From Mustelus asterias (lineage: Eukaryota): a DNA stretch of 64,000 bases. The position numbers and the translations under genes were made by a program. The DNA lies in assembly GCF_964213995.1 (NCBI RefSeq), contig NC_135802.1:107074001-107138000 (forward strand). Direction: 5' to 3'. Each line of letters opens with the position of its first letter. The first letter of the stretch is position 1. Below the pieces are notes generated by a model. The model ran no database searches. It saw nothing but the letters and a program-made list of their open reading frames with translations, and had not been told where the DNA came from. Shown here in pieces: positions 3,170 to 52,306 of this stretch.

Positions 3170-3332
3170 AAAGTCGGTTTCTATTGGCCAGAGACTGATC
3201 AGCTGGTTATATTTGCTGCTGTCGCTTTGGCGCTCGGCCATCCTGAAACAAACCACCTCGATGACTACTAATAGCTAAACCACATTGTGTACTAATACAT
3301 AACAAATCATATTACTACAGAGTGTGGAGCAA
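3170..3332 (+). promoter_or_regulatory. HoxA6 proximal promoter/5' leader
   Basis: ATTGG (reverse CCAAT) at 3183 followed by E-box CAGCTG at 3200, directly upstream of the ATG. Confidence 0.6.
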
Positions 3333-17347: not shown

Positions 17348-19194
17348 CGCTTTTCTAAGCAAAAATAAAGTTTTTAGCAAAATCATTTGGATCCGTTTAC
17401 ATTATAAGACTTTCGCAGCTTTTTAAATTATATTATGAATGATCTAAATATAAACATTTACTCAAGATGTCCTTGGTGAATACAATAAAATTGTACAAAA
17501 TATTAGCACTGTTTCCATGCAGGTTTTCCCTTTGTACAGTGAGTGGTGGAAACAAACATCTGTTAATTACACTGGAAGTCAATTAATTTTGCTGTTCGAT
17601 ACTTAGTTGAAAGCATTCTAATGGACGATTATTCTGCGCATTAAAGTAGGGTAGTTGGTAAATGCACCCCAGAAACGATGTGTTGTGATTGTTGAAGAAG
17701 GTTCAGTCTGATTAAATGTTAGCTTGTGTGCCCGGATACAGTATATCGTCCAAACATTAAAACATTATGATGCATTCTTGATTGACAAGAACTCATGTTG
17801 TGAATCGATTATATTTCAGGAAAGAAGGCGTATTGCATATGGCTACTTTGAAAAAAATAATGTGCAGTGCACCTAAATTGTCACTTTTCTATTTGGTAAA
17901 TTTCACTCTGCGGACCGTTTGGGGTGGATAAGAATTCAAACCTAAAACATTATACAATTTTAATCACATTAAGTTATATGACCAGCCAATTAGCTTGCGA
18001 TTTTTTTTACGGCAGGTTATTTTTACTTCTTCTAAAATGAAGTCAACATTAGAAGGCTTTATCAATTATTGCTGGTATGTTTTGAGTTTCTGAAACGGAT
18101 TACGTTTCTTGATATAACAAATCATACTGCATGCAGATTTAATCGTGTGGTTGTAGTAGGGCACCTGAAATAGAACTGACGCATTTAACGTTCAGTTATT
18201 GAGTGTGTTTGAAAGGAGCGGTTTGTTCAAAATTCAAATAAACAATCAACAAAACGTTTGCCCAATGCTTTGGAATAGAGTTCTATGCAAATGAATCGTT
18301 TCACTGAATAGTTGTGATTTGCGCATTTTTAAAAGATAATATAATTAGTATCTACTTTTATTGGGTATCTCGACTAACAAAATGTTCGTTTCCATCATTT
18401 TACTTTATGAAGATCAATTAAAGCAGATCTGGAAAAAAATCTAATAGTAGAGTATTTCATTAGATAAGTCACATTACAATCGAACAATTAAATGATAACA
18501 TTTTTTAAAGAAGATTTATTACGCCAACAGTCTCAATTGATTACATAACGTTTATGTACATATGCAGTATATGGACAAAATCCTTTACTGTTGCCTGAGT
18601 TATTTAACACTTCGACCTGTACTTGGAATGTGCATTAAGTTCTTCAAACAGCTTTTCGGTCTGATCTAGGATTTTAAATTACTCGTGTTTTGACAACCAA
18701 ACCAGGTATTTTCACAATTTTGTGGGAATTCTTCTTGTAAACGATGCATCTTGGAATGCCTTTGACAGCAACCCTGCATTAGAAAGGACAAGCGAGTGCG
18801 TTGAACTCTCGTAATTATTTTCCCAATTGTTTAATCCAAACCGCACCCCCCCCCCCCCCACCACGAAAGCACTGAACCATGTTGTGTTGTACAGAAACAT
18901 TCTTAGAAAAGGGTAAACTATTTCAGACGATAGCAGATCTCTATTTAATACTGTCTTGTGATGTTTTCTCCGTCAACATGCATTTGCAAATATTTGCATT
19001 CGATAAAACATCATAATATCATTACCCATTTTAGATTATTTTAAAATGAGTGTCTTCCTGGTTGTTTGAATTTTCCTTTTCTATGCTACAACATAATTTC
19101 AGGGGAAACGAGATTTTGAATGATAATATGGAATTTTTGACTGGAGTCCATGCATTCATCATTGGTGTATTTCCTTATCCGGGGCCCACAGCCA

Positions 19195-19321
19195 CTCACC
19201 CCATTGGCTGCTTGCATCACATGAACAGCTAACTTTATACACTTGACAGCAAGTAGGAGGGTTTTATGGAACAGAAAAACGACAACGCGAGAAAAATTAG
19301 TATTTTGCACTTCAGAAATTA
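19195..19321 (+). promoter_or_regulatory. Conserved Hox4 promoter/5' leader
   Basis: CCATTGG (NF-Y) 19201-19207, CACATG E-box 19218, TGACAG, then GAAAAACGACAACGCGAGAAAAATTAGTATTTTGCAC, a leader motif typical of Hox4 paralogues. Confidence 0.8.
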
Positions 19322-19739
19322 ATGACCATGAGTTCGTTTTTGATAAACTCCAACTACGTTGAGCCAAAATTTCCACCTTGTGAGGAATATTCTCAAAATA
19401 ACTACATACCAAGCCAATCTCCTGAATACTACGAGCGGCCGCGGGACCCTGGATTCCATCATGAGGCACTATACCCACAATCAAACTACCCAGAGCCGAC
19501 CTACAGCTTCAACAATGTCCAAGGCACTGGCAACCAAGACATGTCGCAAAGGGGTCATGTGCAGTCGCAGGCTAGCCTCCAAAATCACATACCGAGACAG
19601 AATCAGCTTTGTGAAGTGGTCCCAATAGCCACACCAGCTTTGTGTAGCCAGAATGCGAAAACCCCCACTGCCCAGAAAGGTACTCTCAGCAAAGAGCCCA
19701 TAGTTTACCCGTGGATGAAGAAAATTCACGTTACTACCG
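19322..19739 (+). CDS. hoxa4: HoxA4 coding exon 1
   Basis: MTMSSFLINSNYVEPKFPPCEEYS is the Hox4 N-terminus in the MTM form typical of HoxA4. Hexapeptide VYPWMKKIHV. Donor G|GTAAGT at 19739/19740. Confidence 0.95.
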
Positions 19740-20088: not shown

Positions 20089-20414
20089 TGAACCCAAATT
20101 ACACTGGAGGAGAGCCCAAACGGTCTCGAACTGCTTACACGAGACAACAAGTCTTAGAGCTGGAGAAGGAGTTCCATTTTAACCGTTACCTAACCAGGCG
20201 TCGACGCATTGAGATTGCACACACTCTTTGCCTGTCTGAACGCCAGGTGAAGATCTGGTTTCAGAACAGAAGGATGAAATGGAAGAAAGATCATAAACTG
20301 CCTAACACTAAGATGCGTTCTGCTAGCTCATCATCTTCTACAAGCCAGCAAACACAAGTATCCTCCCAGGGCCCACAGCCAGATGGTTCAGCACCAAATT
20401 CATCAAGCCTATAG
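20089..20414 (+). CDS. hoxa4: HoxA4 coding exon 2 (homeodomain)
   Basis: Acceptor ttgttcag|[31 protein letters not shown]...[10 protein letters not shown] is a PG4 homeodomain. Spliced CDS 744 nt = 247 aa. Confidence 0.95.
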
Positions 20415-37846: not shown

Positions 37847-37962
37847 GTCTACCCGAAGAGGCCATTGGAAGAAGAGAGTCACGTGATACAGGGTGCCAAT
37901 GTTATTCTATAAGGGTGTCAAGACCCTGTCAGTTTGCGAAATAAATATTGGGAAACAACGAG
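37847..37962 (+). promoter_or_regulatory. Conserved HoxA3 leader/proximal promoter
   Basis: Acceptor ttcttgtaaccccag| at 37846, ATTGG 37864, GTCACGTGA 37878, paired TGTCA (Meis) sites in GGTGTCAAGACCCTGTCAG. Confidence 0.75.
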
Positions 37963-38425
37963 ATGCAAAAGGCGACATACTACGACAGCTCTGCAATTTT
38001 CGGTGGTTACACATACCAAGGAGCAAATGGTTTTAACTACAATGCCAGTCAGCAGCAATACCCGCCTTCGTCCCACGTGGAAAACGACTATCATCGGCCC
38101 GCCTGCTCTCTGCAGTCACCGGCCAGCACTGTTCCCCATCACAAACCCAACGATATCAATGAGAGTTGCATGCGAACCAGTGCCAGCCAACCGAGCCACC
38201 ACCCAGTTATTGCAGAGCAACAGCAACAGAAGCAGCCACCACCTCCTCCTCCTCCACCACCACCATCTGTCTCACCACCCCAAAATACCAGCAGCAACTC
38301 GACCCAGTCCAGCACAAACAAAAATCCTACACTTACCTCACAAACCACCATTAGTAAACAAATATTCCCCTGGATGAAAGAGTCGCGCCAAAACGCCAAG
38401 CAAAAAACCAGCAGTTCCAGTTCAG
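37963..38425 (+). CDS. hoxa3: HoxA3 coding exon 1
   Basis: [17 protein letters not shown]-terminus. Hexapeptide [10 protein letters not shown]. Donor CAG|GTATAA at 38425/38426. The exon is entered through an acceptor at 37846/37847. Confidence 0.96.
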
Positions 38426-47742: not shown

Positions 47743-48854
47743 ATTGAGCATTCTGGTCAGTCTCGTTCTTTACCTTTTTTTTCATAACAGTATTTATTGA
47801 AGATGACGAAGAAGAATAAAACAATCCGGGATCTTTATTGTGTGACTGCACAGCAACAACAATAAAATTGGGCTTTCCAACTTTGACCAAAACTGCTTGT
47901 GGCAGAGAGCCGGGAAATGTATTAATATCGACTTTATTAAATTAAATTGCACAAAATATGTGGCGCTACATTTTAATGTTAACAATTCCATAGAACAAAC
48001 TGAACGATGGCAAAAAAAAAGCTATATATAGGAATGAATAATATTCCGTCGAAAAATCTTCTTAAGTTCACACCCCATGGATGAATCTGCCAACTCTCAG
48101 AAAATCTAGGAAAGAAGGGGAAAAGTTTAGGAGTGTTCGCGTCCATTTGTGTTTGTTATCAAACAAACCTCTGTATCTACTGATGCCAGTATCTAATCTT
48201 TAACACCGATTCCTCTATTGCCCTATTGCCAGTCATCATCACAGTGTAGATTTCCATACGTTTTACTGCACCAAGCACCATTAAAACCGGCCCTAAATAA
48301 ATTTAACTGGTCCTAAGGAACTTTGGCATTGCCAAGTAGTTTATTATTTTACTAACAAATCGTGCATTAGAGATTTTCTAGCGAAAACCGATTTGATTCA
48401 AGTAAAGCCAACAACTTTTTTTTAAAAAAGAAAGTAAGTTCTGAGGGAGCGCCGGGAACGGCGCTTAAAAAAATCCATTCAGAACAAATGTTTCATGTGT
48501 TGCAATCTTTTTTGAAAAAAAGTCTTCAAAAAACATGATCTCAAATCTCGGCCCACATTCTGTAAAAGGCCAGGCATATTATGTTTATTTTTGCATTTGC
48601 ATTTGTGTAAATGAAATAGCAGCTGTAGGAATGCACCCTTATTGTGCACCAGGGCTTCAGGACGCGGTTCCTTTTTTGTTGTTTTAATCCTCCTGTAACA
48701 TGCTCTCTGTCCCCTCCCCGAAGTACTTGTTGTATCTCCATTCGACAGAAACTTTCAATATTAGCCGCGGTGCACTGTGTGTTTGTGTTGCCTTTCGAAA
48801 GCACGTTGGGCTTTTGCGTAAGCAGTGACAGGAACGGCTCTGGAGGTAATTCTT

Positions 48855-48925
48855 CCCAAACTCATAAATCAAAGCCCTTTTATGAATGAGAATGTCATCA
48901 AATGGATCAATCGCAGCAGTACATA
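48855..48925. promoter_or_regulatory. Hox/Pbx/Meis site cluster between HoxA2 and HoxA1
   Basis: TCATAAATCA 48862, TTTTATGA 48878, TGTCA 48893 and GGATCAATCG 48904, all within about 55 bp. Confidence 0.6.
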
Positions 48926-51257
48926 ACAAAAAAAACATCTTACGTATTTGCCTGGATTGGGGAACCCCTGTCAGTTTCTAACTTGTAGGCGTTGGGTCGT
49001 AATTCATTTTCACTGTTACTTATAAAGAGCAGGGCGCTTTCTACTGCTTGCTGCTGGCACTCACTCCACATCTAGACTCACGGTGCAAGGATTTACAACG
49101 ATGTGACTGCTGGCCTGGAGTTGCAATTGTTTCATCATTAAGCAGGGAAATAATGGAAAGGACTTTTATTGCACACTGTATTACTGGTTTTGTGCGAAGG
49201 CCAGTGTCGCTTTCTTTATCAGCCTGCTACTGTATTCTGTGTGTAGAGAAGGCGATATTTCCTTATTAAAAACAAACCGCACGGGCAGATAGTGACACAT
49301 TGTCGATAACTTGTCGCTATTAAACAAGCCTTTACACGACATAATGGTAGCTTACTAGGAGAGGTGTCCTTAGCCCCAAAGCACAATGAGAGAAGCTGGC
49401 CCGGTGCCTCAGAGATACAAGCTTTGAGACCGCACTCGATGACTCATGGCGACGGCGATTGCCCTCAAATGCTGAAAGGCAGCCCTTGGTTTACGGGGTA
49501 CGGGGGGTGAGGGGGGGGGGGGGGTACGGACCTCTCACGGAATATTCGGGTCAGCCGCATCAATTAAAAAAACCTTGCTTCGGCGGGGGGAAGGGGGAGA
49601 AGTATTTTTGCAGGCTGATAACTGAAAACTACAAAAGGCATTTTGTCGTTGTTGAAAGCGATTGAATGCACATTTCTTCAGCAGCCAGTTTCCGCTCCCG
49701 AGACAGTGAAGAAAGATGGCGGAACTGATTGTTACAGTAAAGCTGCTCATTTGTTCTAACTCACCAGCATATGGGAACAGGGGCGACAACAGGAAAGGAT
49801 CATTTCTAATTGCCGCCTAATATATGTCGAAGAACCAATTTCCATGGCATATCGGTAAAGTTACCATTGTGAACAGAAAGGAGAGATTTTTTTAAAATAT
49901 AATCCGCAAAAATCTTTCCTGTTTTTTTTATTTCTTATTGATTTGCAATTCATTTCTGTGCTCGTTTTGTCTGTTTAAGGACAATCACTTGGAATTAAAA
50001 CTGGAGCTTTCCTGAACTTAAGTCCATTGTTCAGAGAGTGTAGTTTTTATATTTTACACATTTTTCGGTGTGAAACATATATTGGGAAATACTTGCTGTG
50101 ACTTGCTCTTTGCGGCAAATTGTTTTTTTTTGCGAATTTCACGATTACTACAGTTAGGTGATTGGTGAAAAGTCACTCAGAAATATTTCACAAATCTTAA
50201 GCGAGCAGTTGCTTTCATTGTAAATTGTCAAATCTCATAAAGGCTAAAGGTACACCGAAATAAACCCAGTGTTCCACGCGTGGCCGCCATTCCACAATGC
50301 TTTCTCTTACAGTAGGGCTAGAATCCACCGTTTGTCATAATTAACTAATCCGAGTAAATTACTGTATCCAACCCTGATCCACGTCACTCTGTAATGTGCA
50401 AAAGATTGATCTCAAATCACCACCAACCCTGAACTGCTCTAAGAGGACTCTACAGGAAGCTGACAGATGGGCGGCAGCGTTTTCCAATCGACCACGTTTG
50501 GTTACATTATGTCTCAGCCAAGGGAGTTATTATTCATATCTGTGTGGAAAAAAAACCCTCTGATTCCCGCTGCAAGCAGAATAAATAGGCAGGCAGCCAA
50601 TATAATATAGAAGACTCTTTGGCTGCCTGTAGCCCTATAGTGAGGGGATGCTCCCGCCAGCCTGTGTTCGATTGAAGGGGCTGCTCATTTCCATGCCAAT
50701 AGCGAGGAAGCTGAGGACAGGCAAAGGCCAGGCCTTGATAGGCTGTTGCATGCTTCCTTGTGACATTATTGCACAGTGAAGGCATGGCGCCTCCTTTTAC
50801 AAGCGCACACCATATCACATACTGCTTAAATACAAATCTTCACATCAGAAACCTCTTCGCCCAATCAATCATCTTGCCCTTTTGTTTTGAGGGTCGCCTT
50901 GAGAGCGATGTTGTACTGGTTGGGGTATAATCAGTTCAGGACATGCACAGGGTATCTTGTGCCTGAAGAAAATCTGAGCTATGCCACAGTTACCTGTATT
51001 GTCTTTAAAGAAAGTGCACAAAGTGGTCTGACACATAACAGATTCCTTTTGCATAGCTTTTCCCCGACAAATAAGTATTACCCAGCTCTGCTGGCGGGGC
51101 GGGGGAGGGGGGGGGGGGGACACGCCGCTCACACACAATACTACCGCAGACATTACACAGGAACATGCATGCCCTTTTCACGGTGGAGTAATGCCATTCC
51201 TATAACTCTTCTCTAATGTTCCGGCTGTTAGGTATTTAATCCAGCGGCTGTTCTTAC

Positions 51258-51529: not shown

Positions 51530-51681
51530 AAGGCGGCGATTGGACGGATTGGATCACGTGGCGACACTTCACTGTATATTGATATCATTTTGTTTCATCC
51601 CCATTGAGGAAGTGGGCAAGTTGGCACGGTCCATCCAGGTTGGTGGACTGTCACTTTATATGCTGGTTACTCCAGTGACAG
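51530..51681 (+). promoter_or_regulatory. HoxA1 promoter/5' leader (probably bidirectional)
   Basis: Two ATTGG boxes (51539, 51548), CACGTG 51555, and TGACAG abutting the ATG. Confidence 0.75.
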
Positions 51682-52306
51682 ATGGACAATGCAAGGATGA
51701 ACTCCTTTCTAGACTATTCCATCATTAACGGAGAAACTGGGACCTGCTCCTCCAGAAGTTACCATGTAGATCCAGGAATTACAACTTATCAGTCTTGTGC
51801 CGTTAACAATAATAACTGCAACGCTGATGACCGCTATCTCGTGAGCAGAAGCGTCCAAATAGGCGCTCCTCCTCCTTCTCATCACCATCACCAGACTAGC
51901 TACACACATCACAACAACCTGGGCATCTCCTACAGTGCCCACCCCAACTGTGGGGCAGGATACCCAGCCCAGAGCTTTAACACAGGCTACAGTCATTACT
52001 CACTTAATCAAGAGACGGATGGCAACGGAGGATACCCTCAGTGTGCTCCTGCTGTCTACCCTGGAAACATTGCCTCAGCTATCAGCCCTCATAACCACGG
52101 CTATGGCGGGATGGTGGGGCCAGGCCAATATTCCCATCACCCTTACGGGCAGGAACAGCAGAGTTTAGCCCTGGCTGCGGGTTGTCACCCTCTGTCACCC
52201 GTCCATGGTAGTCACCAGGAAGCCTGCTGCTCCCCGTCTGCAGAGACCCCTCCCCCAGCACAAACCTTTGACTGGATGAAGGTGAAGAGGAATCCTCCAA
52301 AAACAG
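51682..52306 (+). CDS. hoxa1: HoxA1 coding exon 1
   Basis: [13 protein letters not shown]-terminus. Hexapeptide [14 protein letters not shown]. Donor CAG|GTAAAT at 52306/52307. Confidence 0.96.

Follow-up and report, generated by a model that had tools for sequence, protein, structure and literature searches.

The window, by which we mean the whole 64,000-nucleotide stretch of the Mustelus asterias genome that was analysed, contains cluster genes from HoxA6 to HoxA1, all on the + strand. The gene beginning at 19322 had been assigned to HoxA4 in the first-pass annotation, and this identity is upheld by its position between HoxA5 and HoxA3 and by its best match, a named cartilaginous-fish Hox-A4 with 95% identity over exon 1; an Antp-class homeodomain was detected in a search run on that match. 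Searches of the same genome with DNA and with protein queries each returned three Hox4 loci: the window itself, L002, which is HoxD4 (137/137 residues identical to a named shark Hox-D4a), and L003, which is HoxB4 (130/135 residues identical to a named shark Hox-B4a). HoxC4 was not among the three matches that either query gave in this genome. mir-10 occurs about 1.4 kb upstream of both HoxD4 (L002:227-298) and HoxB4 (L003:198-273), and none was detected in the HoxA window at gathering score; an Rfam match to HOTAIRM1_2 (115.7 bits) lies on the - strand at 48839-49057, between HoxA2 and HoxA1. The features surrounding the start of HoxA4, including an upstream open reading frame (uORF) and its ATG (uATG), are these:

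19170..19183, + strand: block of 14 bases without a difference among the three Hox4 paralogues; likely a proximal promoter element (paralogue comparison)
19203..19209, + strand: ATTGGCT (inverted CCAAT) at -119, HXRE-1-like, in 3/3 paralogues
19218..19223, + strand: E-box CACATG at -104, counterpart of HXRE-2, in 3/3 paralogues
19240..19248, + strand: CA within CA[CG]TTGACAG, initiator-like; strict match in HoxD4 and HoxB4, partial in HoxA4
19263..19269, + strand: TTTATGG containing the uATG (19266), in HoxA4 and HoxD4 and absent from HoxB4 of this genome
19266..19322, + strand: 18-codon uORF in the +1 frame relative to HoxA4 (sequence and paralogue comparison)
19296..19315, + strand: tract rich in pyrimidines whose last bases are CAG (19313-19315); likely a 3' splice acceptor (paralogues, protein models, PMC9456764 SI)
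19320..19324, + strand: TAATG stop/start overlap (sequence reading)
19322..19330, + strand: M-x-M tandem start, weak first ATG and stronger second (sequence, HoxA4 models)
19322..19739, + strand: HoxA4 coding exon 1, to the YPWM region (sequence reading, best match)
20089..20414, + strand: HoxA4 exon 2, homeodomain (exons 1 and 2 together give 247 aa, the length of the best match)

The arrangement at the start codon is as first described: the ATG at 19266 opens 18 codons whose stop, TAA at 19320-19322, shares its last A with the HoxA4 ATG at 19322, and this first main ATG is weak, with T at -3, and is followed at 19328 by a second having A at -3. The M-x-M pair recurs in 22 of 23 HoxA4 protein models (best 120 of 167 matches). 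Situated 56 nt before the main ATG, the uATG has T at -3 and G at +4 in both HoxA4 and HoxD4, and so belongs to the weak contexts, which lack a purine at -3 and/or G at +4. The HoxA4 main frame contains stops 8 and 26 codons upstream of its start, and a hypothetical uORF in the third frame would extend 38 nt into the gene. By itself the HoxA4 uORF is unremarkable: 9.7% of 5000 dinucleotide shuffles of 19232-19319 (about one in ten) yield an ATG ORF ending at TAATG, 5.0% yield one with at least 10 codons, and 40 of the 201 TAATG sites in the window, counting both strands, have an ATG ORF within 30 codons. It stands out from chance through its counterpart ATG in HoxD4 and the one inferred for HoxC4.

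The uORF had been said to span exactly a strongly conserved leader motif and had been proposed as a possible explanation of its conservation. The first statement is not borne out, since among the three paralogues of this genome conservation begins at 19170, about 95 nt before the uORF, and both 19170-19183 and 19201-19265 are likewise conserved; the second cannot be the whole explanation, as the promoter motifs and the likely splice acceptor are kept in shark HoxB4, which has no uATG. Identity to HoxD4 and to HoxB4, respectively, is 18/42 and 20/44 in the 5' flank, 16/23 and 19/23 at 19201-19223, 34/42 and 30/42 at 19224-19265, 52/60 and 44/63 over the uORF, and 33/41 and 32/41 at the coding start. 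The CA within CA[CG]TTGACAG, at -81, -84 and -87 in the three paralogues, is initiator-like, and proximal transcripts are predicted to start close to 19241, which is 81 nt ahead of the main ATG and 25 nt ahead of the uATG. Upstream of it, ATTGGCT and the E-box recall the core promoter of human HOXB4, in which HXRE-1 is followed by HXRE-2, a CACGTG USF site, and both motifs precede the transcription starts, which were mapped to 65-90 nt ahead of the ATG (PMC2193192). Contigs of four presumed-RNA runs (run type guessed), compared with 18900-19265, gave a single 76-base piece at 18900-18975 and nothing closer, which speaks neither for nor against transcription of the uORF; no Rfam family was found over the leader in searches of the whole window, L002 and L003.

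A further 3-codon ORF had been noted ahead of the uORF. It is indeed present, starting at 19221 (19221-19232), but was rejected as a leader uORF because its ATG consists of the last three bases of the CACATG E-box and likely lies upstream of the transcription start; it is likely untranscribed, a by-product of the motif. Its recurrence in 3/3 paralogues follows from fixed motif spacing, and illustrates that an apparently "conserved uORF" may be no more than a by-product.

Comparison of the paralogues places the uATG beyond HoxA4. In shark HoxD4 a uATG 59 nt before the main ATG opens a 19-codon ORF that also ends in TAATG, and shark HoxB4 is without uATG, first main ATG or TAATG. The proposal that the uATG is common to Hox4 paralogues is thus borne out directly in this genome for HoxD4, and by inference from 25 protein models (best 120 of 167 matches) for HoxC4; its distribution, with DNA compared among the three paralogues of this genome, takes in shark HoxD4, HoxD4a models of bony fish and likely HoxC4, and leaves out shark HoxB4. 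Being common to HoxD4 and likely HoxC4, the uATG is likely older than the Hox cluster duplications. In cartilaginous HoxB4 the first Met of M-x-M is missing from 3/3 models as well as from this genome (L003:1600-1670; P0005, P0006, P0007), and is kept in 14/16 other HoxB4 models (best 120 of 167 matches).

The uORF had also been proposed to encode a peptide, a view that the HoxA4/HoxD4 comparison does not sustain. The two uORFs are identical at 52/57 bases, and both optimal alignments require one 2-base and one 1-base insertion, which puts 35-36 bases out of register; alignment with a single 3-base gap retains only 37 identities. Of the 57 bases, the 35 out of register are nonetheless identical at 31, whereas the encoded peptides share 7/19 residues. 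Identical bases despite a shifted register indicate conservation at the base level, and residues are not kept between HoxA4 and HoxD4 beyond base conservation, as they are in conserved-peptide uORFs. Frame-breaking indels among homologues, which the first-pass annotation had named as one observation that would tell against it, occur in part. The conservation likely stems from overlapping signals, of core promoter, leader and splice acceptor, and not from a peptide.

From such observations it could be argued that the whole ORF is a by-product, TTTATGG and the bases downstream being kept as DNA or splicing signals, including the splice acceptor and the exon start, and the uATG being rarely transcribed or used; TTTATGG could then be a promoter-proximal factor site, for instance of the Cdx type. 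The high out-of-register identity agrees with this, as do the acceptor-like CAG and promoter motifs kept in HoxB4 without a uATG, the 10-20% chance of such an ORF, the roughly one-in-three chance that two indels restore the frame, the shortness of annotated HOXA4 leaders, and the overlap of the region upstream of mouse Hoxa4 with an intron (PMC9456764). We nevertheless regard it as possible but unlikely, given the initiator-like site 25 nt upstream in 3/3 paralogues, the retention of the ATG through a frame change in 12 bony-fish HoxD4 models (best 120 of 167 matches), and a published Hoxc4 uORF lying in a CAGE-defined leader with ribosome footprints (PMC8892498).

Protein models of other vertebrates extend the comparison. 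N-termini were sorted for the best 120 of 167 matches, with paralogue labels assigned by N-terminal pattern and two rows lacking an anchor; all rows are gene-model predictions, not measured N-termini, and the counts that follow refer to these 120. Among HoxC4 rows, 25/50 read the leader in the main frame, including those of coelacanth, lungfish, amphibians, reptiles and birds; these rows are a biased sample, since only models with an open main frame enter it. A Y-G/E pair stands 18 codons before the first Met in 25/25 of these rows; with any codon choice the +1 frame begins with ATG or ACG, is free of stops and can end only at the L-M junction, so that HoxC4 proteins would imply a 17-codon +1 ORF, one codon shorter than that of HoxA4. 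The main-frame reading of the leader in the window matches HoxC4 at 15/19 positions. The same 25 models (P0013, P0026, P0033 and 22 others) carry 33-residue N-terminal extensions starting at the E-box ATG, and these annotated starts may be wrong, because that ATG is likely promoter DNA.

HoxD4 presents a different frame. In 12 of 26 rows, those of bony fish, ten of them by name, the protein begins 20 codons ahead of the usual Met, with the homologous ATG lying in the main frame; another 12, with the 3 cartilaginous rows among the matches listed, have M-x-M as their start, one reads the stretch without a Met and one is joined to other sequence. The 12 extensions vary at only two columns, in one row each, and agree with the HoxA4 uORF at 10/15 of the first residues and with the shark HoxD4 main frame at 16/21. 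One base thus separates uORF from extension (59 versus 60 nt). The third, overlapping frame was seen in none of the four lineages, an absence that fits selection against overlap, with few events behind it.

These extensions raise the alternative that the conserved item is a second start for an extended Hox4 protein, of which the uORFs of HoxA4, HoxC4 and shark HoxD4 would be a silenced form. The near-invariance of the 20-residue extension, its resemblance to the shark HoxD4 main frame, and the freedom of that frame from stops through the leader in shark HoxD4 and in the 25 HoxC4 models speak for it. We think it very improbable, however, since the HoxA4 main frame is interrupted by the two stops noted above, the ATG is in the +1 frame in three of four lineages, and the extensions are gene-model predictions, set against 9 other, non-shark HoxD4 models that start at M-x-M.

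A conserved, poor-context uORF has been published for Hoxc4, as the first-pass annotation had stated for many mammalian Hox mRNAs (Ivanov et al. 2022, PMC8892498), and most likely it is the same element as the shark HoxA4/HoxD4 uORF, to judge from the position implied by HoxC4 proteins. The same report gives the main ATG context UUAAUGA as a conserved poor context of HOXA4 and HOXC4, and the portion of it available to us lists no Hoxa4, Hoxb4 or Hoxd4 among 13 conserved mammalian uORFs and is silent on an overlap of stop and start, on a uORF common to Hox4 paralogues and on the HoxD4 frame switch. Annotated HOXA4 leaders, of 47 nt in human (NM_002141.4) and 15 nt in mouse (PMC9456764), are shorter than 56 nt, so that the HoxA4 uATG may go untranscribed in mammals; TAATG is kept in mammalian HOXA4, where the uATG is probably untranscribed. 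For mouse Hoxd4 in neural cells, the accessible part of one study reports no proximal start and 1 kb of upstream sequence without promoter activity, and also cites ESTs and a human start 21 bp upstream (PMC3185001). A human Ribo-seq ORF catalogue, in the part available, has one HOXC4 row, for a different ORF of 71 codons, and none for HOXA4, HOXB4 or HOXD4 (PMC10032668).

Other leaders in the window bear comparison with published ones. A 22-codon out-of-frame uORF with T at -3 (51660-51728, +) overlaps the HoxA1 start and resembles, here in a shark, the 21-codon conserved Hoxa1 uORF of PMC8892498. A 5-codon uORF (3261-3278, +) lies 72 nt before HoxA6 (3333), and the Hoxa6 uORF of that report is described there from mammals to tetrapods only; the main ATGs of HoxA6 (3333) and HoxA5 (6245) both carry the poor context described for mammals, C at -3 with A at +4 (PMC8892498). 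A 45-codon out-of-frame ORF (37899-38036, +) begins 64 nt before HoxA3 and overlaps its start, and a second frame of that leader has several ATGs and a stop 18 nt before the HoxA3 start.

The 3' end of the uORF carries a second candidate signal. CAG occurs at the acceptor position in 3/3 paralogues, and 9/120 protein models (best 120 of 167 matches; 8 HoxC4 and 1 HoxD4) join unrelated sequence exactly at K-L-M, right after this CAG, five of them sharing one upstream exon. It is likely that the uORF end doubles as a splice acceptor for transcripts of distal promoters; the predicted exon would then open at 19316, leaving six bases ahead of the main ATG, and would exclude the uATG. A longer leader of mouse Hoxa4 overlaps an intron, according to the legend of SI Fig. 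S11 in PMC9456764. A spliced leader has been shown for mouse Hoxd4 (PMC3185001) and is not counted here for the exact acceptor, because the 700-bp probe suggests that the site may lie further upstream. A literature search directed mainly at journals other than subscription titles returned no paper on the Hox4 stop-start overlap, the HoxD4a extension and its frame switch, or the overlap of uORF and splice acceptor.

The TAATG overlap had been interpreted as a stop-start switch, in which coupled termination-reinitiation passes the ribosomes of the uORF on to HoxA4 and the uORF peptide may have a function; we judge this highly unlikely. TGGGA (UGGGA), the TURBS core complementary to the ES9 loop of 18S rRNA, is absent from the 160 nt upstream in 3/3 paralogues, and the leader folds no more stably than its shuffles (z of -0.24 and +0.12). 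Such coupling at UAAUG requires a structured TURBS with 18S complementarity, and a stop and start within about 20 nt (PMC10275272), of which only the spacing is found here, as a 1-nt overlap. That overlap persists in shark HoxA4 and HoxD4, and likely in HoxC4, with net indels of +3 and -3; shark HoxB4 has lost uATG and TAATG together, and 3/3 cartilaginous HoxB4 models start at the second Met; the HoxA4 uORF and the bony-fish extension share the residues noted above; and the SART1 retrotransposon is cited as a further case of UAAUG coupling (reference in PMC10275272). Against these stand not only the missing core and fold but the main-frame uATG in 12/26 HoxD4 models (best 120 of 167 matches), the retention of TAATG in mammalian HOXA4 with short leaders and no scored uORF, and the 7/19 residues common to the shark HoxA4 and HoxD4 peptides. 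The in-frame fusion in those HoxD4 models and the lost uATG of shark HoxB4 also speak, indirectly, against a main ORF that depends on termination of the uORF. Moreover, residue identity only mirrors base identity, because the HoxC4 main-frame reading of the homologous bases is also nearly invariant.

Neither the peptide nor the viral-type coupling reading is supported. What we consider probable is that the 18-codon frame of the weak-context uATG is a brake, and a leaky one, on the translation of HoxA4 from proximal transcripts, the shark HoxA4/HoxD4 uORF most likely being the counterpart of the published Hoxc4 uORF. Proximal transcripts starting some 25 bases before the uATG would carry it as a leaky start. 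Ribosomes initiating there would terminate on the main ATG and would mostly be lost, because the main ATG and the ATG at +6 are presumably too close for good restart: once a short uORF has been translated, restart takes place downstream, for which distances of tens of bases are cited as preferred, and repression is the usual effect of overlapping uORFs (PMC10275272). Ribosomes scanning past the uATG would initiate at the M-x-M pair, and how stringently start codons are selected (eIF1/eIF5) would set the share halted, a dependence tested for the uORFs of Hoxa1, a9 and a11. The uORF would be bypassed in transcripts that are spliced at 19316 or begin downstream of 19266. TAATG itself is likely held in place by the start of the exon together with the weakness of the first ATG, which makes the overlap largely a by-product, tolerated because the uORF is thereby kept from running into the gene.

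More tentatively, and with less expectation that it holds, we suggest that the ancestral Hox4 uATG may be an evolutionary and transcript-level switch, in which one-base indels in a purine run flip its states and the choice of promoter or acceptor decides its inclusion in the transcript. The states would be a uORF ending on the Hox start (HoxA4, HoxC4, shark HoxD4), a 20-residue extension (bony-fish HoxD4a) and loss (shark HoxB4), and never the third frame. If true, each Hox4 paralogue would receive its own translational gain, which could underlie Hox4 mRNA-protein mismatches; if the uORF is translated, the published Hoxc4 uORF would be one instance of a trait that all Hox4 genes inherited more than 450 million years ago. 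The natural variants (uORF, extension, loss) would then make function directly testable with four short leaders, and the HoxD4 frame switch and splice-acceptor overlap are the parts worth following. The case also cautions that in an ultraconserved leader identical residues and a stop that keeps its place can come from overlapping promoter and splice signals; it provides no new cellular case of viral-type stop-start coupling.

Set beside known systems, the leader shares with the HOXB4 core promoter (Giannola et al. 2000, PMC2193192) the order ATTGGCT then E-box, at -153 to -55 of the ATG there, and differs in having CACATG for CACGTG. The TURBS systems of caliciviruses and influenza B BM2 (PMC10275272) have the same UAAUG overlap geometry but possess the core and structure missing here and a long first ORF in place of a short uORF; the HoxA4 main ORF is reachable by leaky scanning, and the overlap is not kept in bony-fish HoxD4a. 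Conserved-peptide uORFs are likewise long-lived, as this one of 17-19 codons in a fixed position appears to be, yet here register differs between HoxA4 and HoxD4 over 35/57 bases while the bases stay conserved. The closest comparison is the Hoxc4 uORF of Ivanov et al. (2022): no Hoxa4 or Hoxd4 uORF is listed in the available part of that work, nor was the Hoxc4 uORF itself assayed there, but it too is an AUG uORF of suboptimal context in a short Hox leader, and a 17-codon +1 frame at the corresponding place follows from the HoxC4 proteins.
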